From Podarcis pityusensis (lineage: Eukaryota), in the NCBI GenBank assembly GCA_964106645.2, contig OZ067039.1: a stretch of 64,000 nt of DNA. One strand, 5' to 3'. The position numbers and the translations under genes are program-made. Under the pieces are notes generated by a model that had not been told where the DNA came from, did not search any database, and saw only the letters and a list, made by a program, of their open reading frames with translations. Within the stretch, counting starts at the first letter, position 1. Each line of letters starts with the position of its first letter. Positions 3,500-59,560 of this stretch are shown in pieces.

Positions 3500-5100
3500 C
3501 TAGTGACACCCGCCTCGTCGACTCTTCCCTCTGGGCAAGACAAGGAACGCAAGGGATCATTTTGCTTCACAGGAGACCCCACGGCGCCCAGGCACATCCC
3601 GCTCTCTGACTCCTGAGAAAACCGGCTCTATTTAAATTTAAATTAATTAATAACCCGCCCTTCCTCCCAAAGCAGCCCAGGGAGGCAGCTTGCTATCTCT
3701 CCAGCCTTTATCAGCCACGGTGTGTGGGCACCGCGTGGCGCGGGCAGCAAAAGGCGCTCCTCCTCCCCGGTTGCAATTAATGTAGGTGTTCATGAGTAGA
3801 ACACAGTTTGCTATGCGTGCGTGGGCGCGTGCAGGTGTGCAGTTGCAGCGACAGGTTTGCAAGCCGCAGAAGCAGCGTGCTCCGGATCCGACGGTACAGC
3901 ACGAGCAGCAAACCCAGGCCCTTGCTTAAGCTCCGGACCGCGTTGCCCGTCACGTGGGACGCGAAGCCTCGCCTCTTTCGCGTCGGGTTTCAGGGGGAGG
4001 TGCCGCCGCCGCCCTCCTCCTCTTCGTCGTCCTCCCCCCCTCCGTCCCCTGTTCCCATCACGTGTGCTCGGCGGTGGGAAGGAACTTGCTGAGTAGCGGC
4101 GGCAGCAGCAGCGTAGCTTTAGCAGCCGGGCAAAGCAGCCGTGCAAGAGTCTGGCTGGTAACATGGAGGAGGACGAGGAGAGCGGATACGGTGAGCTGGC
4201 GAATGAATTAGATGCATCCAAGGAGACGGGAAGGAACATCTTTGGCTGGGCCAAGGTGGGGGGGGCGGGTCTTAATGGGGGGGGCGCTCAGGGAAAGAGC
4301 CTTAATCTTGCGACTAGTTAGCAGGGGGGAGTGGCCCTTGCATGTTCAGCGAACTGTCCTTGGCTTAAAGCGGGGAGTGTGCAATTGCTGCCCCCCACCA
4401 CCATCCCGACACAAACACATTCGGATTTGGGAATGAGTCTCTCTTTGCATCCTTCTTCGTCTTAGCAAGAGAGGATGAACGGGATTTGGGAGCTGTGTGG
4501 CCGGTTGTCCTGAGGGGGGTCCTGCCTGAGTGGATTCTGAGGGTCCGCTAGTAAATCCCGAGGAGAGATCGGCTCCTGAGCATAGGAAGTAGAGATTGTG
4601 CAATGCCGTGGTGCGGTGCGGGGTGAGGTGCCATTGGTTCAGGGTGGGGTCACACAGGGTGCTCTCTTGGGTATGTCGGTGGGTGGGTAGGGCTACCTTT
4701 TTCCTTAATCACCCCCTATGGAGGAGGGCAGCTGCCCTTCCCGTGGGGGAGAAGAAGAGAAGGTTCTGGGCAGCTGTTCCAGCCCGTGGTCGCAGGGCGA
4801 GGACAGCTGTTCATTACAATGGGGTGCGCGGAGAAATGAGCTTGGAGTCGGTGGCGGGGGGTTTGGGGGGAACAGGCGTGCGGCCGCCTTTTGGGGGGGA
4901 GGGAGGTAAATGTGGCCGGACTCTAAAAAGAAGTATTTACAGGGAAGGGTCAGCGGTGGCTCCCCTTGCGCTGAGCACTGCGGTGAGGGTTAACGAGAGA
5001 CAGCTGGGCCGTGTGTGTTGGTCGGCTTGCGCGCCTTTGGTGGGGGGAACTTCGTGCCGGCATTTATCCTCTAGGCTGGGCAGGGAAGCGTAAACTGCCT
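3500..5100 (+). promoter_or_regulatory. CpG island / main CYTH1 promoter
   Basis: Marked rise in GC and CpG density compared with the rest of the window, spanning exon 1; TCACGTG E-boxes (CACGTG at 3951-3956 and 4059-4064). Boundaries estimated by eye. Confidence 0.85.
4163..4190 (+). CDS. CYTH1: CYTH1 canonical first coding exon (MEEDEESGY + G, phase 1)
   Basis: aacATGG strong Kozak inside CpG island; donor ACG|GTGAGC at 4191; resembles mammalian MEEDDSYV; phase matches exon 2. Confidence 0.92.
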
Positions 5101-25754: not shown

Positions 25755-27887
25755 GTGCTGTCCTGGATGCTGCATGGTTTATAATTATATTTTTATTGCT
25801 CCTTTCATTTCTTATGTATTGTATTTTACAGCATTTTGAAGAATTCAAATTGTAATACAATAGAACGCAACGTAAAAATAAAAGAAGCAGTAAAAATACA
25901 ATTTAAAATCTGTCGGAATATTTTATGTGATGGATTTGCTGCCTCCCATCCTCAGCCACAAATCCACACACAGTGCAGACTACCTGAACGAAGCTCATGG
26001 ACTTCAGTTTGGGAGCCCCTGTTTTGAATAAATGTCATTCAAAACAAAACACCACATGCCACAAATGAAGAATAGTTACCATGCTGGGGCATGGTGAATT
26101 TTTAAAGTTTCAAATTCCAAAGGTGAGGGGTGCTAAAAAATGGTAACATGACCTGAGGATTCAAAAGCTGTTTTCAGGAACGACTGGGCCTGTGGATGGT
26201 CTCATAACAGTTCTCCTGGTAGACTAAAAGCATTTATAACATGCTTTTCTTCACTGCATTAATAACCCACTTTTTCAAGGCGGCACACTTTGTGGTTCTT
26301 CTCTCCTCTGCCAGCAAGCTTCAAGGGGGGCTGCACAGAAATTTCAGCCAGTCTTTTCTCACCCCTAATATTGACACAGTGGACCACACTGGCTCTGCAC
26401 TCAAATGTGCGTAATAGTTTGTGATTCCCCACCCTTTGCTGCAGGCTTGGGAGGGGTTCTTTCTGCTATCCCACCCCACACAGATCTTGCCAGCTAGTGT
26501 TTACATCTGTCAAGCTGTAGTTTCCTCCTTGCCTCCAGAGCATGAGGGGGTTAACGGCCTTCTGGAGGCTGTGGGATCAGCACAGGAACAGGGCGTTGCT
26601 GGTTATCTCAGTCACTGCCAGGCCAGGACTGTGATGACGCCTATCCTCCAAGGCAAGGGCCGCCCATTGGCTGGGACAAGACTTGACTCATTCCAGGAAG
26701 CCACAGCCAGACAGCAAGTCAGACTCAGGTGTCTACCCAGCCGAACAGCACGTAACTGTGGAACGGACAGAGACAGTGGTCTGCAACATCTCTCTGCTGC
26801 TGGCAGCATGGTGCTCAGGATGGAGAACGGTGAGAGTGGCGCAGGGTGGGGAACCCCCGGGCCCCCTCTTTGGGTGGTTGGGAGAGTTGTGTTTAGTGGT
26901 GGCGACCACTAAAGGCTTCATTTGTGGGGAGCCATGGTCAAGTTGGATGTTGTACAGAAGTACGCACCTTCCTCTTTCATTAAACCTTTTAAATTTGAGA
27001 TCTTTTCCAACCTGCATTTGTATTGGAATTGTTTTTAAATAAGTTTTCGTTGTTTTATCTCTCACCGTGTGCTGCTCTGGAAGTGAGTCTGGAATATAAA
27101 TTTAATAAATACATAAACATGGGGTGAGTTCTTCAGAACATGGCCTTCCATGTTGCAGTGATAACTGACTAGTGTTCTGATCAGTGCTGTTTTTCTAGAA
27201 AAAGGGGTGCCGGAACTCACCAGGAACACCTCCCTCCTTCTCTTGGAATGGCAATGGCCCCCACCTGAGAGGTGCTGGAACTGAGTTCTGGCGAGTTCAG
27301 CTGAAAAAAAGCCCTGGTTCTGATAATACTAGTGAGAGTTGAAGAGTTCTTTGAGCTTCTGGCTCACTAGGAGCACATCCCATGAAGATATGCTGCCCTG
27401 GGGGGCGGCGGCGGGGGGGGGGGGTTTGCACTGGAATATGGGACAAGCAGTTACAGTAAGCAATGCCAGGTAGGCTTACTCCTGTAGGGCCACTGCTGTG
27501 GCCTAGATATTTGAGGGGTTTTTTTTGGTGAAGTGTCCTATTCCTGCTCTCAGCCGGGAGAGGCCCAGTCTCGCTGTACTTGAAAAGCAGGAGTTTCTGT
27601 TGGCAGCGCCCTGAGTGGCATGCTCCGGCATGCGTCTCTCCCAAAATACCTCTCCTGTCCTTTTCAGTTCCGCTTCAGCCCTTGGGCACCAGGGAGGGTG
27701 CTGGGAGAAAAGCACGTGGATTTAATGAGGCAACAGGCTGCTTCCTACGCGCTTAGGGCAGGGCTTCTCTACTTTCTCTGGGCACCACCTTGAGAGCAAG
27801 AGTGTTTAACATGGCTGTCCCTGAGCCACATGTGGATCCAGATGAGTGGGAAACGTGTTTGGAGAGAGGGTTGAACATGTTGCCCAG

Positions 27888-41500: not shown

Positions 41501-44134
41501 TGTGCTGATGAATGCCATATAGTGGAATCAACAGTGGAATGAAAAAAATGTGTACGCTGGGTCATATGTTGCATACCCCAAGGGTTTATTGCATATTCTG
41601 GTTACAGCAAGCAGTTCTGGGTGAAGTTGTGACTGCTGCATCAGTCTCCCTGGCCTGCCAGGAGCACATCATATCCTTGTTGAGATCCACCCATTGTAAG
41701 CAACTCTCTCTTTGTTTCTTTACCCTGGCAGTGCCCAGCGACCTGACCCCTGAGGAGCGTCAAGAACTCGAGAACATCCGCCGACGCAAGCAGGAGCTGC
41801 TGGCAGATATACAGGTATGTGGGGATAGGGGTGTGGGGTGCAGGAGGCCATGCTGAAGGTCCCAGGTTCAGTCTCTGGCATCTGCAGGCAGGGCTGCAAA
41901 ATTCCCTGCCGGTCAGTATAGACAGTATTGGAATTTGATGGACCAGTGGTTTTGACTGGGTCTAACGCGGCTTCTTAAGATGTGATCAAGTAATTGCTGG
42001 ATTAATGGGGTTTGTTTGTATGGCACAAGACTGACACAATACTTCCCACCAGGTCCCATTCCAAGGAAGGGTTGGTGGCTGTTTTGTAGCTTCCAGACTT
42101 GGTGCCTCTGTGTGTCCTGGCTTTCCCTCCTTCACCTCCTCTCTTTCGGGGCTTAACTGTTTTCAGTGCCGTGACTTTGCCCTGGAAATGTGACACACAC
42201 ACAAAAATAGAATGCCTTTGAGCACATGTAGACTTGCTTTACCTTGATCCTGAGTAGCCACAGTGGAAACTCCCCCCCCCCCCCACTCCCCAACACACAC
42301 ACCTTGGGTTAGCAGCAAGTGGTTCTTTGTGGACACGAAACCTTTGGCATTTCTTTCTTTGGATATTAAGTGCATGGCTATTCCTGCTCCTGTTCCCCCA
42401 GAGGATTCTGTGCACAGCAGCCCTGAGGCTCTGCACAGCAGGTGTCTTGGGCAAACGTCACTGCAGATCAGCAGCCAGGCACAGTTCTGGCCACCCCAGC
42501 AGGGGTTGGGGGGGTGAGAAATGGCTGGGGCTGGGGTCTGATTACCCTGTGCAGCTTCCATGTCGAAGGATCAAGTTGGTGGGGAGGGGCATCTCCACCC
42601 GCCTTTAGCCTTGACCTGTCAGGTTGATGTACCTTATGGACATGACAAGCTAGAAGGTGGGTTACGGATATAGGATTCTCTGTCGACCAGCCCCACCTCC
42701 CAGTCAAACCTGTTCCATCTTTCCCATATAAGGAAAGATGCTGTAACTAGCCAATATTGGTGCAGACCTTTAAGAAGATGGGGGTACGCCTTCCAAAGTG
42801 ATGCCGGGAGAACATCCCCTTCCCTGCGTCCCACTCCTTCCGTGCCCTCAGAGGCAGTAAGTCTCACCCTCCCCTTGGCTCTGACATGGGCTGCCTGTTC
42901 CTGTGGCAACTTGCTCACGGGTGCTGGGCTTGGCAGGGCTGCTCATCAGTCCTATCAGCAATAAATAAGGCAGTAGGAGAGGCTAATCACTGCCATATGC
43001 TGGACACTTCCTAATGAGATTAGCCCAGTAATTGTGTTAGCCCCAGGGGCTTGCTCTTCTTCCTTCCTTCCTAGAGCTCAGCATGCTGATGCCTCCCACA
43101 GATTGGCATCCATAGCCCAGCCTGCCTCTGAGCCAAGACAGGCAGACAGGCAGGCTTCTCTCTGGTATTCATTTCCCAGGGCAGTGGGTGCCTGCAGCTG
43201 GCTTCAGCTATATCTGATGAGTCTCTGAAGAAGGGAACAGGGTTTCCCCTTACGCAGGAAGGGAGAGGTTCTGTTGTTGAACCCTGCTTCCTGAGTCTCC
43301 GTAAGCCTCTACCTTGCAGGCTCCTGGATTTTTGCGGAGAAGTCAACTTGGCAAGTCTTTCCTCTGCTCTCTATGCATTACTTCTCCCTCTGCCCAACCC
43401 AACTGATCCTCAAACCTAGATTAATGAGCATGGGGAAAGGCATAAGAGGACAGAAAAAGCTGGAGTAATAATTCCAAGGTGTTCTTTTTTAAAAAAAAGT
43501 TCCCCCCAAGAGCCCCACTTGATGGTGTGCTCATTCCCCTGCCTTTCTTCTCCTCTGCAGCGTCTGAAAGATGAGATAGCAGAGGTCACTAATGAAATCG
43601 AGAACCTGGGCTCTACAGAAGAGAGGTGAGTGGTGCTTCTGCTGGAGGAATGGGGAAGGTGATATTTTGGGGGGCTTTCTCAGAATAGAAGTAGGGAGAA
43701 ATAAAGTAAGCAGAAACCTGCACAGCAGAGCTGGCATGAATTCTAACATTAATGGATATTCAGGGTCAAATCGGCCCACTGAAAACAGAAGACAACCCCT
43801 TCTACCAGGAGCAATACTTGAACGTCAGTCCAGATAACGTTGCACATTTCATGCTGTGGATGAAACAATATCTAAAGGCAAACAAGAGTTTAAACTTGAA
43901 GAATAACCCCAAAGACTTATCGGAGACCCATTCATATGCCCAGTAAAAATAGATTTCCCTATTTTGCTGACTTCAGTTGTCTGAGGAATGGGATTCCCTT
44001 GGTCTGGATTCCATCACACTTGTGTTGAGAATTGACATTTTAATCCTATTTACATTTGAGGCCTATATGCTGAGCCTCTAGCCTGTCAAAAAAAAAAGAT
44101 CATACTAATCTATTGAGAAGAATGGGGTGACAGT

Positions 44135-44178
<44 letters not shown>

Positions 44179-47100
44179 CTGGCTGGCTGGCTGTAATGTT
44201 CAGTCTCTTTAAGTAACCATGTGGAACGAAAAGCTCCCAGGCTGTTTTGTCATCAGGGATCTCTGGCCTGGTCTGTTCCACTAAAGGCTCTAGGTTTTGT
44301 CTTGCCCAGAGTCGTCCCTCCCACCCCCCAAAAAACTCCTTTTCTAGGACTGGTCTTGCTTCCCCATCTGGCAGCAGGTTCCCTGTCTCAGGCAGTTAAC
44401 TCTGAACTGAGGCAGATGGAGTCACCAACAGATTAGGCGGCCCAAATTGTCAATGGAAACTGACATGTGACGTCTCTTTCAATCACTCAGTGTGGCTTCC
44501 TTTGCCCATCCCTGGGGACACCAGGCCCTTGTCATGTAGGGCATCCCAGGAGGCTTCCTCCTCCTCTTCCACAGTATATGGTCTCGAGATCAGTCTGCTG
44601 GTGTGCCAGTTCCCTGCTGTAGTCTCCATTTTAGTGCTGGGAAGACATCCAAGTTCCACCAAAACTTAGCTGGAGTGGCGAGAGGTCTTCATTATTTCGT
44701 GGGGTAGAGAATGTATTTCCTTGTGTTTAGAAACTTAGGCTTGCCGCTAGTAGGGGAGGGGTTTGTGCATGTGCGATGCACCCTGTCCGATAGGGGAATG
44801 GAAAGTGCCTCATTGCCTAGCCTGCCTATGACTAAGATGTAGGGAGGTGGAGCATTGATGAAGTGGCACAGCCCCATGCTGCTCCTTGGTGGGGGTGTCT
44901 CTAACCCAAATCTTTTGTGCCTTCTAGGAAAACCATGCAGAGAAACAAGCAGGTGGCGATGGGCAGGAAGAAGTTCAACATGGACCCTAAGAAGGTAATC
45001 AACACTTCCTTACTATGGAGCTGGCAACAGGTGTTGTCCAGGGACCACCACAAGGTCCCTCATTGCAGGCAAACTGGCTACTGACTTGTGGACTTGGCAT
45101 GGTGTTGGGATACTCAGGTCTCAGGGTGACTGATCCTGGCTAATGGTTAGAAATGCCCAAACAGACACATGTGCTCCTAGGGAAGGTGGAGCTAGTTGCG
45201 GGCCAGTAAGCCACTGGTGCAAATCTCACATCAGCCACGAAACTCATTAAATGGTCTTAGGCAAGCCACTATTTTTTTAACCGCAGGCTCCCTCACCTGC
45301 AAATACAGCCTGCCTTTAGGGCTATTGTAGGCACTACTAAGAAGGTTTGCATGAGACACAGCTTGACCATTTCAAATCTACTATCTGCATTCTATGCATT
45401 ATTGGAGGTGTTTTGGGTTCCTGTACCTGTGTGTCCTGTGCAGGGGCAAATGCAGAGAGACACCCTCTTCTTTCTGTGCTTGCAGGGAATCCAGTTCCTG
45501 ATAGAGAACGACCTCTTGAAGAACACCCGCGATGATATTGCCCAGTTCCTCTACAAAGGGGAAGGGCTCAACAAGACAGCCATTGGCGACTACTTGGGTG
45601 AAAGGTAATGGGAGAAGGGAGCTCTGGGGCTTGGTCTTCCTTTATAGCCACTACCATAATGGACTTTGGTTCCTATCTCTCATGGGCATTCAAGAAATGG
45701 GAAAAGAACTTGGGATCCCAAGAGATCTCTTGCCAGTGCTCCATTGTTTCGAGTTTCCCATGTGGACTGGCTGAACCGGAGTTCATAGTCAGGACCTTGT
45801 TAGCATCCTTGGCTAATTGGAGGGTTTCTGTGCCCTGAACCAAGCTTTGCTTACCAAGTTGCGGGGGACAGCTGAGGAATGCCAACTGAAATTGTGAATA
45901 TTTAAACTGTGTGGGACTTCAGGATCATTCTCGCTGCAGCTGGCCAGTACTGGGTACTTCAGCACTGCATAACACCTAAAGCCTTGAAATAACTTGCCTG
46001 TGCTCTGAAGCTTCTTGGAAGACTTCTGGTAACTTCTTAAGAATAGACACCAGGCCATCTTAAAGGCCCAGAACTGACAGATTGAAAACTGAATATTTTG
46101 CATTCATGCAGAAGGTCCAGTTCCTGGCATCTCCAGGTATAATGATCCAGGATTGGGTAGCAATTAAAATGATGAGGGATTGGGTAGCAAGTCACGACAG
46201 AGAACCTTCTCTACATGTATTTCCCTGGAGAAAGACTGCCTGTCAGAATAGACCAGCGGTTCCCAAACTCTGGTGCATAGGCCACCAGAGGTCCACAAAC
46301 TTCATCCAGGTGTGTCTGTGGATTTGTAGTTAAAGATGGGAGGTGGCAACTCCATGGCATCAAACATTCATAATTGATTTTTAATTGCATTTTTAGTGCT
46401 TCCTCTATTCCTTACATTGTGTTTCGATTTTAATTCTGTGGACACAATAAAATACAATATATAAGAAATGAAAGGAGTAATAAAATACAATTAAAAACCA
46501 TACCGTGTCTAGCATGGCACATTGCAACAGCCAGAAAAATCATTAAGCGGTCTGCCCAGACCATCCAGTAGTCCATGCTGGGGTGGGGAAATGTGGGAAC
46601 CACTGGAACAGACCATATTGGACTAGATGGTGAGAGAGTCCCACCTGGGATAAGGCAGCTTCCAGGCCAGGCCAAGAGGAGAGCCCAGTTCTTGGCAGCA
46701 GCAGTGGTTTGGCAGCTGTATGGGAATGGTGAGTTTGGTCGCTCTCACATGTTCCCCTATTCTTTTGCCTCCTCACAGAGATGATTTCAATATCCAGGTG
46801 TTGCACTCATTCGTGGAGCTGCATGAGTTTACAGACCTCAACCTTGTCCAGGCACTGCGGTGAGTGGCAGCAGGATGTTTGTGAGTGAATCACAGGTGTG
46901 TCCTTTTTCTCTTTTCCTGCACGGAAAAGGCAAGAAGAGGACATGTGTGGGCTTTGGGGCTCCCTAGGAAAGAGCAGTGGTTTGCAGTCCACACACAGAG
47001 AGGGAAATATGTGACTTGGAAGTCTCTGGCACATCACACAGCCCTTCTACCAAGGAATGTTACTTCTCTGGCAGCTTTGCTTACAGTCCTACTCAGCTTA

Positions 47101-50100
47101 GCTGACTATGTGCTCGTTTTCCCCGCAGGCAGTTCCTTTGGAGCTTCCGGTTGCCGGGCGAAGCACAAAAGATTGATCGGATGATGGAAGCCTTTGCACA
47201 ACGGTACTGTCAATGCAACCCGGGTGTCTTCCAGTCAACAGGTATGCACGAATTGACTAGCTGAACTCTGCAGGCAGCTAGGGTTTGGGATGCAGTTTTT
47301 CCTGGAGCATCCTCAGAGAGTTCACAGTTGGGTGCCTTCTGGCTCCCACTGCCAGATTTTCAGGCTTTGTTGCTTGGAAGTGGAGAAGGGCTGGCAAAGT
47401 TCTGTCCCATAGTTAAAAGTGTGGATTTTGCTCCCACAAGATGGAGAAATGGCCACCAACTTGGGATGGCTTGGAAAGACCCAGTTCACGGGTATAAGGC
47501 TATCAGTGGCTACTAGCCGTGGTGGCTATGTTCTCTTTCCACTGTCAGAGGCAGAATGCGTCTGAAAAGTAGTTCCTGGGAATCACAAGTGGGGAGAGGG
47601 CTTTTGAGCTTGTGTTTTGCTTGTGGTCATTCTGCAGGCATTTGGTTGACTACTCTGAGAACAGGATGCTGGACTAGATGGGCCTTTGGTCTGATCCAAC
47701 AGGGCTCCCCGCCGAGCCACCCACCCACCCCAAGATAGCAAACAACCCAACACAGAGCATGCATCCTGGGACTTGGTGACACTTCCTAGGCTACCCAATT
47801 GTCTGAGTTTGTGCCTTGGTAATGGATGGAGCCCAAAGGGCAGCCCATTCTGTGCTTGATCCATCCTTCACACCTTTCTCCACCCCAGATACCTGTTATG
47901 TGCTCTCGTTTGCCATCATCATGCTCAACACCAGTCTTCATAATCCCAACGTTAAGGACAAGCCGACAGTGGAGCGCTTCATTGCCATGAATCGTGGCAT
48001 CAATGATGGCGGGGACCTGCCCGAGGAGCTACTTAGGGTGAGCTTTGTGGGAAGGGAGTGGAAGTAGTGTTTGGAAATCACAGGACTGCGATAAGGGACA
48101 TGGGGGTGGCAGGTCATCGAAATATTGGAAGTTGCCTTTGTACCTGGTCGTATTTGTCCATCTAACCCACTATTGTCCTGTTGCGTCTTATCTGGTTGAC
48201 AGAGACTCTCTCCTGGGCCTCAGGCAGAGATCTTTCACATTGCCTGCTACCCGTTACTTTTTTGCATGTTAGATGTGGAGGATTTCACCCGGCACCTTCT
48301 GCATGCAAACGCTGGTCCCTTCCCAGGTTGGCTATTCCTCCTGGGAAGCAGGAGTTGGACTTGCACAGGCCCCCAATGCGTTTCTCTTCCTCCTACCAGA
48401 ATCTGTACGAGAGCATTAAAAACGAGCCCTTCAAAATTCCCGAGGATGATGGCAATGACCTGACGCACACTTTCTTCAACCCAGACCGTGAAGGCTGGCT
48501 TCTGAAGCTCGGTGAGTGCATCTGCGCAAGGTGCAAGGCCTCAGCCATGCGGAGCAGTGCAGCTGTCGCCATGGCATAGGCTGCAGGGAGCAGGGAGCTC
48601 GGCTGCAGTCTGGTGACTTCTTCGTTTTTGTTTTTTTTGCATGGGGCTCGGTGGCCACAATCCAGCACAACACATACCCATTGCCGAACTCAGGATGCTT
48701 TCCTAATCATCCATGCTTCAGCAGGATGTCCAGCAAGGGCAGTCTTGGTTGCAGTGCTCAGCGTCCCCTAATGGCTCTCTTAACTTGGGCACAGCCGTCT
48801 GGTTTCGGTGATTTGGTGGGTTGGGGTGCTTATGACAGTGAGGAAGACACATTGGTTTCATGGGCCCCAGGAACAGCAGATAAACTTGGGCTTTCTCTCC
48901 CTGGCTCCAATATTCTTAACCACTGTGGACTAAGCATTAGCCCAAGACTTGTCTGTGGTTCTGTGCTTCTCACCTGACATTGGAGGCTAGTCTCTGGCAT
49001 CACCTCCCACAACCCCGCTGTGTGCGCACCGGCAGTGCATGCATGGCACCTGCAAGGCATCCACCAGCCCACCAGCCTTTCCCTGCGCAGCCCTTGACCA
49101 TCTTTCTCCTGCTCACTCAGAATGTTTCAGTTGTCTTGCCAGGTTATGGCTGGAGCAGCTCCCTGGCTGGTTTGTTTCTCCCATTTCTCTCCCCACCACC
49201 TTTAGGGCTGTTTAAATCTCTTGGAATCTTCAAATCAAATTTGAAAGCACAAATCCTCTGAATATTCAAATTTGCAATCACTGAATCTTTAATGAAATAT
49301 GGCTAATGGAATTATTCATCTATGTTTGAATGTGTAACCATCCTCTTTTTGCTTGGAGCATTTTATGAAATAAAATGGAAACAGATGCTTTTGATTCCAA
49401 GGGATTGAGGGAGGATGCACACACTCGAGATATTCCTGGGGAATGATGTCTGAGCTGAGACTCTGTGCTGAGTCTGAACAACACACCTTTTAAATCGTGC
49501 CCTTTCTTTTCCTTTCAACCAAAGCCATGCAACAAAATGACAAAGGATTGATAGATATTGTTATTTAGAACACACGTTTTAATTATTTTAAAATAAGAGG
49601 TTGCATTGCATGGCAGTGGAGACAGCAATGAGGCTTGCTCACAAAGCAGACTTAAGGACAGGCTGCTAGGTGCACCATTACAGACATGGATATAACTTGA
49701 GAATATTTTACAGTTTACCATTTTAGACCTGCACGTAAGCAGCAAATATATGGTTGCTTGAAAACACAGTTGTATATTACAGTTGTGATTGTAGCAAAAC
49801 ATAAATTTTGTTTGCTGTGAAGTTTCCATTCTTTGTTAGCTATGTTTAGAAAAGATACGTGATCCTGAAGTTCAGCCAGAAGAGGAAGCCTAAGAGATAG
49901 TTTCATTTCGGACTTGGGAAGGATGTTTTCTGGCAAAAACGCCACAATTTTCTTCCCTACAGCCATAACTTCTTCCCTAACTCCAGATCCACCCAATGGA
50001 TAAACAAATGAAGACACAGAAAAGACACAGGACAAACACAGGATAACATACACCATAGCTGGCTTATCGTTAAATAAGCCTTGATTGAAACTCATGATCA

Positions 50101-53100
50101 AATCCTTTTTTCTATTTGTTTCAAACTCCAGCCCTCTTGTGTCTCAGTTCAGGAAGCATTCACCAGATCTATGTTGGTGTGTGTATCTGTGTCAGGTGCA
50201 AAGGTGGGGTGTGTGGGTTTGTTTGTTTTTAACACTGGATTTTAAAAATTGTGACTAAAAAACTGCAGGTACTAATGCAAAGAGTGCAGACATTGCAATG
50301 AGAACTCAGTTCAGCATGGCCTTTTCCAACTTTGGGAATTTCTCCTGTGGCTAGCTTTCTCAGAGGCAGTAGAAAGAACTGGCCTGAATCCTTTTCTTCG
50401 CAGATAAGTGAGCTTTTCTGCCTGAGCTGGGATGTTTGAATTGGGAATTCTAGGCTGCAGCTATATCCAAATTTAGGCCCCCTGGTTCCCAATACTACCT
50501 GTCCCTGTCCCCCATTACATGGGAAGGAAGTCCCCTTGATCCCTGCGGGACCATGTTGCTGACTTTATCACAAAATGCTAAATCTGCTGAGTTAGGAGCA
50601 ATCACTCAGACAGCATCCTGTGGTTTTACCCTTCCACTGAATGCCCAGGACTTGGTAGAGCTTTATTCTGGGATACAGTGCCGCAGGGTGGCGGCAGAAA
50701 ACAAAGACATGCCTAAAATCCTTGGAGAGTGAGATTAATTTGGCCCGTGAATGCGCCAAACTGCATTGGTAATCACCAGAGGCGATTCCTCGTGTGTACA
50801 CGATTTTGGGGGCAGGGGCCTTGGCTGTCTTCCAGCTGAATCCCAGCAGCAAATTGCTGATTGCTTCCGCCTGCGAATGATGCATGCCACCCCCACATGG
50901 AGGAGTCTGGGCTGCAGGCCACTTTAACAGCTGTCACCAGCCGTGGCACTAAAATTGCTAATTCTGTGACCAGGGAGCCGTTCCTGTGGCAAGCAAATTC
51001 CTGACGCTACCAGGATTTCCTAAGCTAGCAACAAGGACGAACCTATTTTTTTTTTGCCAGGAGTTCCTGGGGCTTTTGTGTCCTTGGCTTTGGCACCCTG
51101 ATGACCTCGAGGTGGGCACTCTCCTTCTTGGTATTCTAGCGGAGAGGGAGACCTGCACCACAACAGGAGAAACGTGGGCCTGGTTTTGGGAAAACCCCTT
51201 CTGCCAACCCTCTTTTCCCTAATGCTCAACACCTTTCATTAGCTTGGGCAGCGCCCCCTGCTAGCAGCAACTGGGGTGTGCGCCAAGGGCAGATTTGATA
51301 AAGTCCTTTGTTTTTTAATTTTCTTTTCTCCCTCATTTTGTATGTTTCCATGATTTTGGCACTGCCTTTCCCTGCCCTCCAAACTCCAGGAGGTACGTAC
51401 CCCCATATCCCCTCGCTAGCTTTGCCGGGGCCAGGGGTGTGCTGCCATGCTTCTTTATTTTTCTGTTCTTTCGTTCTTTTAAATTGCTGGTGATTATTAC
51501 TAGTCTTATCGCTGCTATTGCCACCGTTGCTAACTGGCTGCACAGTCCATGGGGAACTGGGGGACAGGTGGGATGGTGAGTGGGATGGGGGGGGGTGACG
51601 GGAAGGCGGAGTTTCCATGTCCTGTTTGGCCCATCCCTCAAAAAATTGCCCCAAAGAAGCTTCACAACATGGCCAGGTCTGAGCCTGGCAGTATCTCCCT
51701 CCCCAGCTTTGTCAGTACCCTGGATTTTTAGGAGTCAGAATCACATTGTAGGATACAGCGGTGAAGAAACAGCCTTTTGTCTGCCCCAAAGAGGCAGGGG
51801 GCAGGGAGGTCACTATGCCCCTCAAGAAGAAGCAGCTCCTCACGGCATGGACGTTGCTGTCCAGTAGGGCGCCTTTGCTTGAAAATGGCAGCGTGGCCAC
51901 ATCTCTCTGGGAACTGACACTGTGAATCTGGCCTGAGAAGGTGCATAGCCACTGAGCCTGGCTTGCTATTGCCAAGAAACTCTGCGTTCGCTGCTTAAGA
52001 CTGGATGCTTCCTGCTCCAGAAGGCCCAGCAGTGCAGCTACAGCGAGTGCACAGCTGCCATCATGAAACCATCCAGGCATTGGCGATGCCTTATTACCAG
52101 CCCTGCAGCAAGCAGCTGGCAAACCGCGGTTCCTTATCCCAGCAGGCATAGCTGTTCATGGTGGTGGGGTGTTCACGCATGGCTGCGCTGGTGCTACCTG
52201 CACTTACTGTACTTGCCCCATTATATTTCTGCAGGTCACATGACAAGCCCCACCCCCTGCCTCCCAACATACCCGCAGAACTTTCTATGCCCCACTGAAA
52301 GCTCTTCCCCTTGGGTTTCCCCCCCTTCCCATTAAGCTGGAAAAGGGGAAAGCTAGTATTAAGAGAAAGCTGCATTCCTTTCATGGAGACAATATCTCAA
52401 TACATTTCTGTTAAAGATTTCTCAACCTCTCTTCATTTAAAATAATTTCCAAACCAAGAGATAAAGTTTAGAACTGCAAAAGCCTGGTTATTAACGTAGG
52501 ACATTTGTCCTGAAGGGCCCTACGAATTCGCAGGCAGCAGAAAAATGGGGAGGCCTCTTGTAACAAGGACTAATGAAGTATTAATTGTGCTAAGCTGATG
52601 CATGTTGGCAGCCGCATGGCATTGGAGTCCCAGTTGGTGGAGGCCCAGAGAGCTAGGGAGGCGCTGGCAGCAGTGAGCTGTTAAGATCTTGATTGGGTAA
52701 CGCGTCATGGTTCTTACCAGTCCATTTATAACACTGTAAATCCTTTCCAATCCTTATCCCGCCTAACTCTGCAACAACCCTGTGGAGTAGGTCACTGCTT
52801 CCATTTTTAAGGGTAGGGAGGAGGAGGTGGAGACGGGGCCTTGGCCACTCAATGGTTCCATGGCTGATGAATCTTTTGTGCCATCCTCTGGAGAACATCG
52901 ACTCCCGCCATCATAAACGAAGGGAGAATGTTAATTTGTTTAATGTGATAGAATCACAGACTCGTAGAGTTGGAAGGGATCACTAGGGTCATCCAGTCTA
53001 ACCCCCTGCAATGCAGGAATGTTTTGCTCAATGTGCGGCTCAGACCCACTACTCTGAGATTAAGAGTCTCTTCCTCTATCCCAGATGTATTAGCCTAAAT

Positions 53101-56100
53101 TGTGGTTAGCTTTTTAAAGAGTTTCTTGGCAACTAGAATAACTTAAAACAAAGAATCAGCAGAAATTCTTGTGGCTTCTTTCTCTAGAAGTCTCCAGACC
53201 GCTAAAATATATATCCAAAGTATATATTGTATATTCCTGGCTTCTAAATTTAATGCCATGTCGTGGCGGAGGAGGAAAAGCTGCATAATGAATGGGCAGG
53301 GTCTATTCCCTCAGTTTCTTAAAACTGACAGCAATTTGGAAAACCTCTCAAACAACGTTGCTTCATGAACATTTGGTAGCCGGCTTAAAAGATTTCAAAA
53401 CTTTGTGGACTTGGCTTATAGCAGATGGGACATACTCACTGAACAGCAACCATGGCTAGAAACCACTGGTTAATATCCTGGTCTCATGAGCTTATTTATA
53501 CTCGTCCTGAGGGAAACATACTTTGGGTAATTCTAGCTGGTTATCTCTTATTAGCAGCTTCGCTTGGGGGCTCCTTAACAGGGTGCGTGGGGTAATGACA
53601 CCACCCGCCCCCCGCTTTGTTCACAAGGCTGTTGTACCTCAGAAACTGTTCTAGCATGAAAACAACTTTGTGAGTGAAATTCCAACTTGGGTTTTTGCCT
53701 CAGACCCTTAACACAACCTGTTTGGAACTTGCACACACTAAAAAGCATCTTTTGTCTGGTGCTCCCTAGAGATGTTTCACTGTGTACTCTTCCGATAGGA
53801 CGGTAGCAACCCTTCCTAACACCAGGTCAAACCATTGGTCCATACAGTCCAGTATTGTTTACTCTAAAGGTGGGGAATTTCCAGCACATGAGCTAATCTC
53901 GGCCCACAAGGCTTTTCCCCACAAATCCTGGTCAGCTGAAGAGTGGAGTCTAAATCTTTCTGCTGGGAACAGGTGTGTATAGTCAAGGCAAGCAGAAAGT
54001 AGTGTTTTGCAAGCAAAGGCAGAGTGCTGGTGAAGTCCCCCTCCACTGGCTTTCCTTGCAAAACACACCTTTCTTTCTAGTGAGTGGATCCTCCTTTCAA
54101 GGGAGGGGAGTGGAAGCTGCTTCCATTTGCACTTTTCAGCCTTAAGACTGTGCTAAAGCACTTGCCTCTGAAAGTCTCCCCATCTTCTTATTGTAAACCC
54201 CCAACATAGGGTTTGAAGGGGAGTGACATGAAAGCTTGCAAAGCAATGCCTGTCTGCCATGTGACATTGTGTGATGGGTGGATCAGTAGCCCAGTCCACC
54301 TGTCAAACTTGTCCCATGAGGCCAATCTCATGGGCCTCTGTTTCCTCACCCTGGTCTACTCTTGACCGGCAGCAGTTCTCCAGTGTTTGGGGCTGAGAAG
54401 GGCCTTAAGATTCCTGGCATTCCTCGTAAAAGGTGTGTGCCCCACCACCAGAGAGTGAGGATCCCTGCAGTGGCTCTTCTGAGAAGGTTGGCAGTGGGCC
54501 ACCCCATGATGCCAGGGGCTCCCAACAGGTGGGGTTTTCTGTGTTCCCTGGGGACTGTGGCAGGCACTATCTGGAGCAGTTGGCTTGTTTTGTCTTTTTT
54601 TCCCCTTTTCTTTCCCTTCTTGTGTTGCTGAATGAGGTCTCATTGTTGTATGTGCTGGTCTGTGGCTGTCAGGGCCTCCTTAGGAGGGGTCTCTAGTGTT
54701 CTGCACCTTTTAAATCTTGTTGACTCATCTCCACCACCATGGGCTTGAGAGAGCAGCCAATGCTGACAGAAAATACCCAAAGTTGTTGCCCTCTCCACCA
54801 CTGAGATCTTTCCATCTTTGCCTCCCTGTCCTGCATTCCTCACCTCTCTTGGACGTGCTGTTGTTTGCAGCCTCTGACTGGGGAGGCCAAGCAAGGAGGG
54901 CCTGCAGCTACAGCATTCTGTCGTTTTCACAAGTGAGGTGCAAGGTGGCTTTTGCTGGAGGTGGTCCTGGGGGTCTCTTGGTGTTCAAAATGACCCCCGC
55001 TGTATTGACTGGTGGTCGCAAGGTCTCTGACCCTGTACTTGGGATCTGAGCTGTCTGGTATGGATTCTTTTTATTATCATTATTTTGGTGATGGCTTGTG
55101 CAAAAACCTTTCCCAAGACCCTGGATTTGGCTCCTGGACACTTGAGCTTCAGTGTCAATTTGGGAAGGGCCACTGGAGTCTCCTGTGTTTACTGATGGGA
55201 TGGTGGGTGGGGGCATCTTTCTGAATGGGTTCCAGTTCTAAGCCAACCCCCCTCCCTCCCTCTCACCTCACCCTGACTAAAAGTCACCAGAGCGGGATTC
55301 CATTGAACTTTTATTCTGAGATGGGCTTATACAGAAAAGACTTTCAGGTCATGTTTGTATTTCAGGCCCCGCCCCACACCCCGCCTTTTGGGTGGAGCTC
55401 TGGAGGCCCAACTTAAAAGCCACACTGGGGCAGGAAAGGGAATAGCTGATTCCTGTAGTTTCAGTACTCATCCCTTTTTAATCCTGAAGCTGTTGTTAAG
55501 CTCTGCTTCTTGCCTGGAACTGTATGTACCCGGGCAGGCAAGTCTCAGGGACAAGAACCCATAGCTGAGAAAGACTGTGTAGCCATGGGTTGTCTGTTGG
55601 TGTGTCTTTCTTTTTAAATTAGTTGGAGCTGGCTATGAGGCAGGATGCCTGGGTAGCCTCAGGGCAAACAGAATCCCATGGAGCTCAGACTCTGACTAAG
55701 CTATGAGCTTTGTCCATAAAGAGCCTCAGTAGGTAGATCCCAGCACTAGCAGGACACTGATGCCTCTTTCTTCCTCAGCATGTCGGCAGATCCATGTCTG
55801 CTCCATAGTATACGCAGCAGGGCACTTCTCTTGATGACCACCACCTCTGCCTTCCGCCTGCCCCCTTCAGCTGCTATGCTCGCCATGTAGCCACTGGCTG
55901 CTGCTGCTGCTGTGGTGTGTGGCTGGCTCTGCTTGCACTGCTGACGCCACTTGCTGTCTTACACCGCCTACTTGTGCCTGTAGGCTCTTAGCTCTGCCTT
56001 TGCCTTAGCTGCTCTTGTGCCCAGCACCCTCCTTTCGGCCTGGGCATGCATTGTCAAGCTTGCTTCTTCTCTGCGCAGGTGGCCGGGTGAAGACGTGGAA

Positions 56101-59100
56101 ACGGCGCTGGTTCATCTTGACGGACAACTGCCTTTACTACTTTGAGTACACCACGGTGAGTGGCACAGGGTGCTCTCGTAAGTGTCCACGGACATGATCT
56201 CATGACGGGATTGCTAATGTGCAGTTTTGAATGATGGACTATGGTATGTAGTCTTAGGCTCGTGTAAGAGTCCAGGACATGGGTTATCTGGAGTCAACTG
56301 CATAGCTGAGTTCTTACTGACTGGCGTGGGAATGGTGTAGAGCAGGCTTCCTCAACCTCGGCCTTCCAGATGTTTTGAGACTACTATTCCCATCATCCCT
56401 CACCACTGGTCCTGCTAGCTAGGGATCATGGGAGTTGTAGGCCAAAAGCATCTGTAGGGCCAAGGTTGAGGAAGCCTGGTGTAGAGGTACTGCAGACTTG
56501 GCTTTAATTATTTCATATAGACACACATACCACCTTTTCCCCCTGACAAGAATTCAAGGTGGCTTACACATTACAATAAGAACAGCTAAAAACATAGGAA
56601 GAAAAACTCTTAATTATTAAAAAGCAGTTAGTTTTAAAACTATAAAGGTTTGTTTAACTATCTAAACTAACTATATATTATTAGAAAGGTGCAGATAATT
56701 ATGTTGAAAAAAGCATGGCACCAGCCCTTTGATTAAAAGCAAGTCAGTTGCCCAAAGCCTGTTGTAACAAGAAAGTCTTCAGCTGCTGGCGGAAGGACAG
56801 CAAGGAAGGAGCCAGTCAAACTAGGGAAGGAGTTCCAGAGTCCGAGAGCAGCCACCACAAGGTCCTATCCCACATCCCAAAGGTGCCTGTGAGGGTGGCA
56901 GGACTGAGAGAAGGGCCTCCCCCAAAGATCTCAGATCCTGGGCAGGTTTGTATGAGGGATTGTGGTCTTTCAGATAGCTAGGACCTAAACTGTATTGCGC
57001 TTTATAGGTTATATAACCAGCACTCTGAATTGTGCCTAGAAACAGACTGGTAGCCAGTAGAGCTGTTGTAACAAGGGGCTCTCTATAACCAGCCCCAGTC
57101 TACAATCTGGCTGCAGCTCTTCGAGTCAGGTGAAGTTTCTGGACACTTTTCAAAGGTAGCCCCATGTAGAGTGTGTTATAGTAATCGAAACGGGATTCAA
57201 CTGAGGCATGTGCCACTGTGGCCAAATCAGACATCTCAAGGGTATATATTGGGTGCAGCGCATTCTGTTGTGGACCCATGAAAGCGAATGCCCTAATAAA
57301 ACAGTTAAGTCGGTCAGATGCCATGGTTGTGTTTGCAGCAGTAGGCTACTCCTTTCAAATGAGCATTAAGGAGGAATCTGTCTGAGAGCAGTGTTCTTCC
57401 TGTTCAATGTTGGGATGGAAGAACCTGTAATATTTTGTCAGAATGAACCAGCCTGGATGTGTCTGAATTAACAAATTGTTGTCTTGCAGGACAAGGAGCC
57501 ACGAGGCATCATTCCCTTGGAGAATTTGAGTATCCGTGAGGTTGAAGATTCCAAGAAGCCTGTGAGTAAATGCCAGTGCTGGAGAGTAGGAAGTGCTCTC
57601 CACTTCCTACCTGGGGGGAGCCTAGGCTGCGGATACTGTGTGCATGTAAAAAGAAAGAAAAGGATGATACCAAGAAAAACTGAATTATGCAAATCATTAA
57701 CTAAGCTTGCCTACTTTTGTAGAGTCGATTCTGATTCTGCCATGGGGGAAGAGGCAAAGCTATGCAAGGACACCCAGCTGGCTACAGAAAAATCCTGCGC
57801 AGGGATAAGCCAGGCTTTTGAAACTTGACTCATCTTTTCTGCCCTAAGAGCAAAATGCTTGATGTGTTTAAGCGGATGTTGATGTTTGCAAGGTGATGTT
57901 AAACCTGCACACAGAGTACTATTTTCTGTGCTTTTGCAGTGCAGGATATGCACTGTCTTTTGGAGGTCTCCAAGGTGTTAAAGGACCCTGCAGCATCTGA
58001 GCTGTTAGTGACTACACTTGGATAATGCTATCAGAGCTTAAATAGCCAAGATAGGAAAAAGCCCCATTCCTGTTCACAGCTAGTTCGCTCCTTCCTCTGC
58101 TTTGTGATCAATCCAACCAAAAAGTCTTCACCCATAGTTTCCTTGTTTGGATGAAATGGGGAAACTGTGGTTAATCAGTGATATTTCTAGTTTGCTTTCT
58201 TGAGGAGCAATGGGGCTGCATGTGTGGGTAAAAGGCTTATTCATAATTACGTCTGATCCTCAGACAGCTTGCCAGTGATTTTTATCAAGTCGTTCTGGTG
58301 ATAACTGCAGTGGGCCAGGAATGCTGGCTCGGCTAGTGGAATTGTAGGCCCTTGGTGAGAGTTGCTTTCCCAGAGTGTTGTATTGCTGCCAGGAAGTCAT
58401 ACCAGAGAACTGGTTACTTGCTGTCGAAAATCCTGTAATTCCTGCTCTTGAAGGATGTCTGGGAAATCCCTGGAATATGCAGAAATTTTGAGCTGGTGTT
58501 GGCCACAAATCAATTCTGTTTATCCTTCTCTTCTTGCAGAACTGCTTTGAGCTATATATCCCTGACAACAAAGACCAGGTGATCAAGGCTTGCAAGACTG
58601 AGGCAGACGGGCGTGTGGTGGAAGGGAATCACACTGTGTACCGCATCTCTGCACCCACCCCAGAGGAGAAGGAAGAGTGGATGAAATGCATCAAGTGAGG
58701 AGGGGCAGGAATGATGTGAAGGGATCTGGGTAGTTTGCTTGAGCAATGTGTCATTCATTAATTCGTTCATTCATTCATTTGCATGTTGCTTTTCTGCACA
58801 CACACAAATGCCCAAAGTGGCTTACGACAAAGAAAAAAGGGTGCATTTCAAACAAATACTACAAAACAATTTCATAACAACAAACCCAAAAAACCCCACA
58901 TTTCAGCGCTATAAATATAACAAAGATTACTTAAAAATGTAGCATCCAATAGCCAAAATTAACAAGGGAGCTTCAGTTTCAGGCTTAGCCCTAGAAATAT
59001 GCCTCCCATAAAGTAGCTCACAGTCCCTCTCCTGCAGCAGCTTCTTATAAGGCTTACATGGGCAAAGGGTGGAGTAGCTGTAAACACCCCTCCCATGAAA

Positions 59101-59560
59101 AGAATTATTTCTCATTCCTCCAGATTTCCTCACTGTGAGGGAGGTGGGGGCGCAAATCTGTGGTTAGGTGGGCATCTGGAATTTTGGGGAGGAGATGTAG
59201 CATCTGAGAATGGGGCCTCTCTATAGCTCCCTGGTTGAGATTTGCCAGTGGGTTGTGGGTTATGAGGGGGAAATAGGGCAGCCCTTAATGAAGTACAGTC
59301 CCCTGATCTTCCTGCTCCCTCTTCAAGCTAAATCATGCTTCCTTCCAGAAACAGTAGCTAAGGGGGTGGACTGATCCTATAATTATGTGCTGGGTTAAGG
59401 GATTTCCCTTAACACTTTGTGGGTTTTTTTACTCTCTCTCTCTCTCCCCCCCCCCCCCGCCTCCCACTTGTCTCTCTTCAGAGCTGCAATTAGCCGGGAT
59501 CCATTCTACGAGATGCTTGCTGCACGCAAGAAGAAGGTCTCCTCCACCAAGAGACATTAG
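4163..59560 (+). CDS. CYTH1: Cytohesin-1 (ARF guanine nucleotide exchange factor), spliced CDS: join(4163..4190,41732..41814,43561..43625,44928..44994,45486..45604,46779..46859,47129..47241,47889..48037,48400..48511,[51390..51392],56079..56155,57490..57561,58540..58694,59482..59560); 399 aa (2G) or 400 aa (3G)
   Basis: Manual splicing gives an open 1200-nt frame with GT-AG introns and matching phases: [43 protein letters not shown]...[17 protein letters not shown]...[18 protein letters not shown]...[20 protein letters not shown]. The N-terminus and C-terminal VSSTKRH match CYTH1 as I recall it, rather than CYTH2/3/4. Confidence 0.97.
5274..5300. repeat. (CA)n microsatellite
   Basis: Read directly from sequence. 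Confidence 0.95.
11321..11410 (-). mobile_element. LINE/SINE 3' tail with (AAT)n
   Basis: (AAT)n then tttatttatatcccgccctcccc...ctcagggcggctaacaac, an L2-type terminus in reverse orientation. Confidence 0.6.
11788..12045. mobile_element. Tc1/mariner-superfamily MITE, 258 bp
   Basis: Perfect 23-bp TIR ccgtattttttgctctataagac / gtcttatagagcaaaaaatacgg, flanked by TA on both sides. Confidence 0.92.
12118..12806. mobile_element. Older hAT-like non-autonomous element
   Basis: Imperfect TIR cagggcagtccaac / gttggaccaccttg and decayed 8-bp flanks acctaacc / atctaccc. Confidence 0.45.
13940..14125 (-). mobile_element. MIR/CORE-like SINE; related copy at ~20295-20470
   Basis: acaatcacgtgaggtta...ggcccaagatcacccagtgagc...ggggatttgaaccctg pattern shared with 20295-20470. 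Confidence 0.65.
14150..14460 (+). mobile_element. L2-clade LINE reverse transcriptase fragment, degenerate
   Basis: ORF 14134..14457 has [16 protein letters not shown]...[21 protein letters not shown], a decayed LDPFQSGFRPG...LLDLSAAFDTIDH motif. Confidence 0.85.
16184..16305. mobile_element. Penelope-like element terminal fragment, degenerate
   Basis: gagtcttctggcaccttaaagactaa...cttcatcagatgc resembles reptilian Penelope pseudo-LTR sequence as I recall it. Confidence 0.5.
16504..16649 (+). mobile_element. RTE-clade LINE 3' end
   Basis: Encodes [26 protein letters not shown], the C-terminal zinc-finger motif of RTE ORF2, followed by a short 3' UTR and gaagaagatgat tail. Confidence 0.75.
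18853..18931 (+). CDS. CYTH1: Candidate alternative first coding exon of CYTH1 ([26 protein letters not shown] + G)
   Basis: atcATGG strong Kozak, 26 codons plus 1 nt, near-consensus donor CAG|GTAGGT, phase 1 fits exon 2; GC-box-rich upstream region. Confidence 0.7.
19515..20036 (-). mobile_element. tRNA-Lys-derived, CR1-tailed SINE split in two (19515-19584 and 19985-20036)
   Basis: Both halves match the reverse complement of the uninterrupted copy at 38636-38774. Confidence 0.75.
19585..19984 (+). mobile_element. L2-clade LINE 3' end nested inside a SINE
   Basis: Encodes [23 protein letters not shown]...[13 protein letters not shown] (L2 ORF2 C-terminus); ends in (TAAA)n tail. Confidence 0.85.
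21308..21532. mobile_element. Tigger/pogo-like MITE, 225 bp
   Basis: TIR cattggtacctcgggt / acccgaggtaccactg (1 mismatch), TA target duplication, internal ttcttaacctgaa repeats. Confidence 0.88.
25724..25752. repeat. (TA)n microsatellite
   Basis: Read directly; lies inside a hAT-like element copy. Confidence 0.95.
26808..26829 (+). CDS. CYTH1: Candidate alternative first coding exon of CYTH1 (MVLRMEN + G)
   Basis: agcATGG strong Kozak, 7 codons plus 1 nt, donor ACG|GTGAGA, phase 1 fits exon 2. Confidence 0.55.
27182..27316. mobile_element. hAT-type MITE, 135 bp
   Basis: Perfect 8-bp TSD GTTCTGAT (27174-27181 and 27317-27324); imperfect TIR cagtgctgtttttc / gaaaaaaagccctg. Confidence 0.88.
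27894..27953. repeat. (TC)n(AC)n compound microsatellite
   Basis: Read directly from sequence. Confidence 0.95.
28285..28393. mobile_element. Partial copy of the palindromic MITE family
   Basis: ttttgggactacaattcccatcatc...gatgatgggagttgtagtcccaaaa inverted repeat; same core as 56343-56478. Confidence 0.75.
34958..35381 (+). mobile_element. CR1 LINE, 5'-truncated, ORF2 C-terminus and 3' tail
   Basis: ORF 34978..35304 ([22 protein letters not shown]...[39 protein letters not shown]) is typical of CR1; terminal ttctatga repeats. Confidence 0.95.
35451..35514. repeat. (CT)n(GT)n compound microsatellite
   Basis: Read directly from sequence. Confidence 0.95.
38636..38774 (+). mobile_element. 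tRNA-Lys(CTT)-derived SINE with CR1-like 3' tail
   Basis: Head tcagtcagtaaagcatgaaactcgtaatctcagggttgtgggtttgagcccca resembles tRNA-Lys; tail gcagggggttagactagat...ttccaactccacaattctatga matches the CR1 3' end at 35320-35381. Confidence 0.8.
41732..41814 (+). CDS. CYTH1: CYTH1 exon 2 ([28 protein letters not shown]), coiled-coil
   Basis: Polypyrimidine tract plus CAG acceptor, CAG|GTATGT donor, 83 nt. Confidence 0.97.
43561..43625 (+). CDS. CYTH1: CYTH1 exon 3 ([22 protein letters not shown])
   Basis: ttcttctcctctgcag acceptor, GAG|GTGAGT donor, 65 nt. Confidence 0.97.
44136..44177. repeat. (GT)n microsatellite
   Basis: Read directly from sequence. Confidence 0.95.
44928..44994 (+). CDS. 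CYTH1: CYTH1 exon 4 ([22 protein letters not shown]), start of Sec7
   Basis: cttctag acceptor, AAG|GTAATC donor, 67 nt. Confidence 0.97.
45486..45604 (+). CDS. CYTH1: CYTH1 exon 5 ([40 protein letters not shown])
   Basis: ttgcag acceptor, AAG|GTAATG donor, 119 nt; seen in ORF 45351..45608. Confidence 0.97.
46254..46605 (+). mobile_element. Non-autonomous hAT-like element inserted in a SINE; related copies at ~23790-24125, ~25524-26021 (inverted), ~31560-31952
   Basis: TIR cagcggttccca / tgggaaccactg, 8-bp TSD gaatagac / gaacagac; AT-rich internal quasi-palindrome shared among four copies. Confidence 0.8.
46779..46859 (+). CDS. CYTH1: CYTH1 exon 6 ([27 protein letters not shown])
   Basis: cctcacag acceptor, GCG|GTGAGT donor, 81 nt. 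Confidence 0.97.
47129..47241 (+). CDS. CYTH1: CYTH1 exon 7 ([37 protein letters not shown]), Sec7 catalytic glutamate finger
   Basis: ttttccccgcag acceptor, CAG|GTATGC donor, 113 nt; FRLPGE motif with GAA at 47160-47162. Confidence 0.98.
47889..48037 (+). CDS. CYTH1: CYTH1 exon 8 ([50 protein letters not shown])
   Basis: ccccag acceptor, AGG|GTGAGC donor, 149 nt; Sec7 motif 2. Confidence 0.98.
48400..48511 (+). CDS. CYTH1: CYTH1 exon 9 ([37 protein letters not shown]+G), Sec7-PH linker
   Basis: cctaccag acceptor, TCG|GTGAGT donor, 112 nt, phase 1. Confidence 0.98.
51250..51264 (-). promoter_or_regulatory. CTCF-like motif upstream of the microexon
   Basis: Minus strand CTAGCAGGGGGCGCT, one mismatch to CCAGCAGGGGGCGCT, CpG retained. 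Confidence 0.45.
51390..51392 (+). CDS. CYTH1: CYTH1 3-nt alternative microexon (GAG), adds one Gly to the PH domain (2G to 3G)
   Basis: Long AG-free pyrimidine tract then ctccAG|GAG|GTACGT; G+GAG+GT gives GGA GGT; matches the known cytohesin diglycine/triglycine microexon in the expected intron. Confidence 0.88.
52949..53080 (-). mobile_element. tRNA-Lys-derived, CR1-tailed SINE copy
   Basis: Reverse-complement match to the 38636 copy (tagagttggaaggg...ccccctgcaatgcagg...ctgagattaagagtctc). Confidence 0.75.
56079..56155 (+). CDS. CYTH1: CYTH1 PH exon ([26 protein letters not shown])
   Basis: cttctctgcgcag acceptor, ACG|GTGAGT donor, 77 nt. Confidence 0.98.
56343..56478. mobile_element. Palindromic hAT-type MITE, 136 bp
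   Basis: Perfect 8-bp TSD GTGTAGAG (56335-56342 and 56479-56486); perfect 16-bp TIR caggcttcctcaacct / aggttgaggaagcctg; body largely self-complementary. Confidence 0.92.
56515..57245 (-). mobile_element. L2-clade LINE 3' fragment
   Basis: ORF 57100..57324(-) [42 protein letters not shown] matches the L2 ORF2 SRLDYCN...LQLVQNAAARL region; AT-rich 3' UTR near 56520-56720. Confidence 0.85.
57490..57561 (+). CDS. CYTH1: CYTH1 PH exon ([24 protein letters not shown])
   Basis: tcttgcag acceptor, CCT|GTGAGT donor, 72 nt. Confidence 0.97.
58540..58694 (+). CDS. CYTH1: CYTH1 PH exon ([52 protein letters not shown])
   Basis: ttcttgcag acceptor, CAA|GTGAGG donor, 155 nt. Confidence 0.97.
59482..59560 (+). 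CDS. CYTH1: CYTH1 last coding exon ([25 protein letters not shown]), C-terminal helix and polybasic region
   Basis: tctctcttcag acceptor; TAG stop at 59558-59560. Confidence 0.97.

Follow-up and report, generated by a model that had tools for sequence, protein, structure and literature searches.

The window, a 64,000-nt stretch of Podarcis pityusensis DNA, contains 12 standard-size coding exons of a cytohesin gene. The protein read from these exons shares 391 of 393 residues with Podarcis CYTH1 and 97 to 98% with four other reptile entries, compared with 86 to 87% for two CYTH3 proteins (335/390 and 338/390 residues) and 82 to 83% for two CYTH2 proteins (322/391 and 325/391). Judged by these protein comparisons, the host gene is lizard CYTH1; CYTH1 had been proposed by an earlier reading of the letters alone (here called the sequence-only reading). 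A search of the animal's own genome found four cytohesin loci, with the three other paralogs on other contigs. The features on which the analysis rests are as follows.

41731..59560, plus strand: the 12 standard-size coding exons of CYTH1 (coiled coil, Sec7, PH, polybasic tail, and stop), located by tblastn
48400..48511, plus strand: upstream coding exon, with the end of the Sec7 linker and the PH beta-1 strand (...EGWLLKL plus one G base)
51295 (position −95), plus strand: second candidate branch point, TTGAT, by motif prediction only
51304..51387, plus strand: AG-free, pyrimidine-rich tract of 84 nt (79% C+T), read from the sequence
51315..51319, plus strand: candidate distant branch point, TTAAT, at −75, by motif prediction only
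51363..51375, plus strand: two TGC motifs, at 51363 (−27) and 51373 (−17), by motif search
51388..51389, plus strand: AG of the microexon 3′ splice site (CAG), read from the sequence
51390..51392, plus strand: 3-nt microexon GAG, adding one Gly to the PH beta1/beta2 loop; read from the sequence, with an inclusion junction in runs X4 and X14
51393..51398, plus strand: microexon 5′ splice site GTACGT, read from the sequence; the CYTH3 microexon is followed by the identical hexamer
51393..51542, plus strand: cluster of 10 YGCY motifs in 150 nt downstream of the microexon, possibly an MBNL-type enhancer
56079..56155, plus strand: downstream coding exon (GRVKTWKRR..., PH beta-2 strand, lipid-binding arginine)

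The microexon lies on the plus strand in a phase-1 intron that splits the glycine loop of the CYTH1 PH domain, and it divides this intron of 7,567 nt into 2,878 and 4,686 nt. The upstream exon, over which spliced contigs of X4 and X14 extend, ends in phase 1 directly before the donor GTGAGT; the peptide of the downstream exon is identical to the solved GRP1 and ARNO PH domains (25/25 residues). In the CYTH1 reading frame, skipping gives L-G-G-R-V and inclusion gives L-G-G-G-R-V. The arrangement AG/GAG/GTACGT at 51388 to 51398 was checked on the letters of the window, and the positions that the sequence-only reading had given for the tract, the TGC motifs, the splice sites, and the flanking exons all match the sequence. 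The tract is mostly unpaired in the predicted fold. The fold of 51290 to 51460 is no better than that of shuffled sequences (z = −0.55; 53 of 200 shuffles fold equally well), and therefore we claim no structural element.

Several other features of the region were seen in passing. Two further long AG-free runs end in AG, at 52152 to 52234 (81 nt) and 55891 to 55983 (91 nt); use of the latter, which lies 95 nt ahead of the true acceptor, would cause a frameshift. Antisense stop-to-stop frames of 161 and 133 codons (51226 to 51734, minus strand) overlap the microexon, without evidence of coding. At the 5′ side of the gene, there is a likely alternative first coding exon at 18853 to 18936, which matches the N termini of turtle and bird isoforms at 68 to 73%, and another at 26487 to 26828, whose 113 residues match the N terminus of Podarcis CYTH1 isoform X2 at 90% and may partly be translated 5′ UTR in that isoform model. 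The short MEEE-type first exon of CYTH1 was not located in the window. A CpG-rich stretch at 3001 to 5000 (observed/expected of about 0.6) is a possible main promoter, and candidate polyadenylation signals lie at 61281 and 63227, 1.7 and 3.7 kb past the CYTH1 stop.

Use of the exon was looked for in sequencing runs of relatives, of which 4 of 24 (4 of the 18 guessed to be RNA, a label that is a guess, with none on record as RNA and no tissue recorded) were compared with 48300 to 52300. X4 comes from organism A (study P2) and X14 from organism C (study P5), both of them relatives that are about 96 to 98% alike in the intron and not the species of the window. In both runs, depth over the upstream exon is 7- to 10-fold that over the intron; the exon is joined to the previous one at 48399, which identifies the material as spliced RNA. 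Furthermore, a 60-nt contig in each of the two runs matches the upstream exon up to 48512 and then reads AG followed by the first letters of the downstream exon; hence, exactly GAG stands between the two exons. Inclusion transcripts were present in 2 of the 4 runs, from two related organisms and two studies; X12 and X15 have no cover of the upstream exon and are therefore uninformative. The three inserted letters have no unique mapping, as 2 of the 25 AG-NNN-GT sites in the intron carry GAG. The sequence-only reading had named a lack of inclusion reads in any tissue as one outcome that would speak against it, and the GAG junction is found in contigs of X4 and X14. It had also proposed a toggle conserved in this reptile. 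Inclusion in two relatives bears out one half of that proposal; the skipped form is not among the contigs listed for these runs, and therefore we infer the toggle itself in this lineage.

In sum, the known 3-nt GAG exon of CYTH1 very probably has its lizard ortholog at this site; two relatives include the exon, and some tissues likely skip it, by which the PH domain would be switched. Inclusion would produce a triglycine PH domain with loose binding of PI(4,5)P2 and PIP3, and skipping, likely in some tissues, would produce a diglycine PH domain selective for PIP3. The long AG-free tract, together with a distant branch point, may leave enough space for the spliceosome to recognize an exon of this size. 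Inclusion would be expected to be broad and tissue-graded and not restricted to neurons, and with such a pattern, the exon probably does not need SRRM4.

The functional part of this reading leans on mammals. Passages of PMC6314551 call the CYTH1 3-nt exon evolutionarily conserved and report that the diglycine form of CYTH1 has a 640-fold higher affinity for the headgroup of PIP3 than for that of PI(4,5)P2 and moves to the leading edge after growth-factor signalling, whereas the triglycine form is constitutively at the plasma membrane and binds the headgroups of PI(4,5)P2 and PIP3 similarly (Kd of 7.2 and 3.0 µM in mammalian isothermal titration calorimetry [ITC]). A review restates the mechanism (PMC6724607). 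The one-glycine switch that the sequence-only reading invoked is thus supported by PMC6314551, except that the triglycine form binds both lipids and is not selective for PI(4,5)P2. By analogy, we infer the same lipid switch in the lizard protein, in which the added glycine likely alters which membrane lipid is bound.

Both forms of the loop occur in database proteins. Among 120 homologs (the best of 1,603), 83 have GG, 14 GGG, and 4 another loop, and 19 have no pattern match, one of which is GGG after a different residue; the homologs are cluster representatives, and these counts are not isoform frequencies. The GGG set from these 120 includes Caretta, Falco, Colius, Hymenochirus, and four fish. 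Annotated triglycine CYTH1 proteins thus far come from a turtle, birds, a frog, and fish among these homologs. The four squamate entries among the best 120 of 1,603 comprise two GG, one with another insert, and one without the motif, with GGG in 0 of 4. At least 7 of the 120 homologs have long inserts at this junction, some of which may be model errors. Such inserts are seen in the database models P0194, P0196, P0243, P0198, P0204, P0206, P0210, and P0217. In the three bat entries (P0194, P0196, and P0243), the inserts are alike, with about 25 residues each, and may be a genuine exon of that lineage; the others are perhaps model errors.

The paralogs in the same genome have comparable sites. 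The locus on C14 is CYTH3 by match to a named alligator protein; those on C13 and C10 we take to be CYTH2 and CYTH4 by elimination and by C-terminal sequence features. Two candidates were located.

L005:862-864 (G000:C14, ~10835661): CYTH3 GAG microexon candidate, 597 nt past the upstream exon, donor GTACGT
L007:2449-2451 (G000:C13, ~36688948): CYTH2 GAG microexon candidate, unusually long AG-free tract, GCATG 19 nt downstream

In the CYTH3 intron, AG/GAG/GTACGT stands behind 89 AG-free nucleotides (L005:862) and ranks at the top of 33 sites, and in the CYTH2 intron, AG/GAG/GTAGGT stands behind 262 AG-free nucleotides (L007:2449) and ranks second of 12 by donor score. Two further sites were discarded: L007:1425 in CYTH2, which has the better donor score but is purine-rich with an AG-free run of 4, and L005:4948 in CYTH3, a GAG site with an AG-free run of only 4. 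None of the 3 candidates in the CYTH4 intron (977 nt) is a GNG site. In this genome, the GAG microexon layout is accordingly present in CYTH1, CYTH2, and CYTH3 and absent from CYTH4. This is the pattern of PMC9104363, a review that names cytohesins 1, 2, and 3 as carriers of a 3-bp GAG insertion. Alignment of the paralog flanks left 45 of 194 columns invariant, with short shared motifs only.

A first alternative concerns the control of inclusion. The exon could be a canonical neural SRRM3/4-dependent microexon that is turned on in neurons via UGC motifs, and the TGCs at −27 and −17, together with the long distance from branch point to AG, do fit the layout described in passages of bioRxiv 2024.09.17.613571 and PMC12871342; in these passages on microexon layout, the CYTH genes are not mentioned. 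Furthermore, a TGC at −17 or −15 recurs in all three paralogs (at −17 in CYTH1), compared with a background of 10 to 24% per site, in a comparison window that was chosen post hoc. Chance alone, however, often places a UGC between branch point and AG: of the 495 intronic AGs, 223 carry at least one TGC in −30 to −4 and 54 carry two or more, and therefore two TGCs alone are weak evidence. Nor does the human ortholog have low inclusion outside neural and endocrine cells. In PMC7935315, inclusion of the human exon amounts to 61 to 74% across normal breast, prostate, lung, and colon, and the SRRM4-versus-GFP inclusion table of that paper, with 314 rows, has no row for a CYTH gene, where a high baseline could mask an effect; in 12 of the 19 supplementary files, no CYTH gene appears among SRRM4-induced exons. 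High nonneural inclusion in human and the absence of CYTH1 from the 314 SRRM4-induced exons make SRRM3/4 control weakly supported. Neuronal activation by SRRM3/4 is, in our view, unlikely, and of the SRRM3/4 signature that the sequence-only reading had seen, the two TGCs are there and the control that they were taken to signify is doubtful.

A further proposal, tentative and rather improbable, starts from the downstream side. The 10 YGCY motifs in the 150 nt after the exon are equalled in 1 of 49 other intron windows. MBNL bound at downstream YGCY promotes inclusion, and MBNL is abundant in muscle and blood. Perhaps the GAG microexons form an SRRM4-independent class, in which CYTH1 to CYTH3 have retained a shared CTG...CTGC element about 28 and 17 nt upstream ever since they duplicated, paralog-specific downstream motifs set the defaults, and MBNL-type YGCY motifs drive high CYTH1 inclusion in muscle and blood. 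The link between MBNL and the YGCY motifs of the CYTH1 exon is put forward as a hypothesis. Titles and the beginnings of abstracts in the literature found, a search on CYTH1 and MBNL1 included, name no regulator of the CYTH1 exon, and the supplements of a zebrafish study (PMC12626424, 12 files) and of MicroExonator (PMC7821500, 8 files) gave no match to cyth, possibly as they do not list it by gene name.

A second alternative accepts the exon and denies the switch: lizard CYTH1 would always be triglycine. The inclusion junction is indeed the only one listed in both informative runs, and in X14, the depth of the inclusion contig (70.5) is close to that of the upstream exon (71.3). None of the 4 runs has a listed contig with the skipped junction; variants are lost in contigs, and the stretch compared ends short of the downstream exon (56079). 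In X4, however, the inclusion contig (293) and the intron (46.8) leave about 130 of the upstream exon's depth of 470 unexplained, where contig depths are poor measures and do not equal percent spliced in (PSI). Two lizard CYTH1 database models (P0179 and P0246) are diglycine, although gene models may simply miss the exon, and human PSI spans 25% to >95% in passages of PMC6314551. We regard a constitutive exon as improbable.

A third possibility is that one of the flanking exons uses a shifted splice site, a tandem acceptor or donor, and so supplies the extra glycine, with 51390 unused. Some cytohesin-1 models read LAGGRV (P0120, P0211, and P0226), as a tandem CAG acceptor would give, and the relatives were compared on 48300 to 52300, with the acceptor end of the downstream exon beyond. 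On the other hand, the acceptor ends in GCGCAG, without a tandem AG, and the donor begins with GTGAGT, and hence neither flanking site can yield GAG, which are the inserted letters observed; in addition, each of three paralogs has its own AG/GAG/GT site behind a long AG-free tract. A shifted site is very hard to reconcile with these data.

Finally, a motif this short calls for comparison with the rest of the intron. The CYTH1 intron contains 25 AG-NNN-GT sites, among which that at 51390 has the best donor score (4.77, with a runner-up of 1.77; the score is built from general base frequencies of donor sites). Three of the 25 could give Gly-Gly, and only that at 51390 has a tract. The triplet GAG occurs at 2 of the 25, at 51390 and at 52824, the latter a rejected candidate with an AG-free run of 1 and without a pyrimidine tract. 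Of the gaps between the 495 intronic AGs, only two are longer than the tract, and none of the 12 longest is richer in pyrimidines. A GNG site with an equally good donor arose in 23 of 1,000 first-order Markov resamples of the intron, and 0 of 1,000 combined such a site with ≥40 AG-free nucleotides, with thresholds that were picked after the site had been seen. That so long an intron produced the motif by chance, as the 25 sites and the 23 resamples might suggest, is scarcely credible given the result once the tract is demanded and the recurrence of the layout in two paralogs, and this reading is already largely refuted by the inclusion junction.

The ortholog reading thus kept, the exon is real and already known, as the ortholog of a well-known event. 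In human, the event is catalogued as VastDB HsaEX0018350 (chr17:78696007-78696009; supplement file 6 of PMC7935315). Since the switch is well described in mammals, the lizard exon is real but ordinary, and the novelty that the sequence-only reading had attached to it was too high in view of the human catalogue entry and the triglycine CYTH1 proteins annotated in turtle, birds, frog, and fish. Among the 20 literature matches listed, of 761, nothing relevant reports the exon in reptiles. Biologically, little is added by one more vertebrate ortholog of a switch that has been described since 2000, with a functional study in 2019. The practical value lies in annotation, as exact coordinates of the CYTH1, CYTH2, and CYTH3 microexons are now at hand in this lizard genome for a feature that is frequently absent from gene models or wrongly filled in. 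Furthermore, a 3-nt exon was correctly read from raw sequence, which makes it a good positive control. The point of some interest is the splicing factor behind the tissue pattern.

Compared with neural SRRM3/4 microexons, the exon is alike in its length of ≤27 nt, the preserved frame, UGC near the acceptor, and a long unpaired region between branch point and AG; it is unlike them in that the human CYTH1 exon has high inclusion in nonneural tissues and does not appear on the list of 314 SRRM4-induced exons. The Drosophila cytohesin Steppke has a PH domain with a diglycine loop that binds PIP3, and an engineered third glycine weakens binding (passages of PMC4640550), and thus the structural effect holds far from mammals; a natural triglycine isoform is not described in these fly passages. 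CYTH2/ARNO (HsaEX0018354) and CYTH3/GRP1 resemble CYTH1 in the GAG insertion, the AG-free tracts, and a TGC at −15 or −17. Their downstream flanks differ from that of CYTH1, with 4 YGCY motifs per 150 nt versus 10 and with an ACTAA motif, which CYTH1 lacks within 300 nt. In three human lines, CYTH3 inclusion is 5 to 21%, versus 66 to 93% for CYTH1 (passages of PMC6314551). Closest of all is the human CYTH1 microexon (HsaEX0018350; PMC6314551), which shares gene, intron position in the PH beta1/beta2 loop, length, and the change from two to three glycines and differs from that of the lizard in species only.
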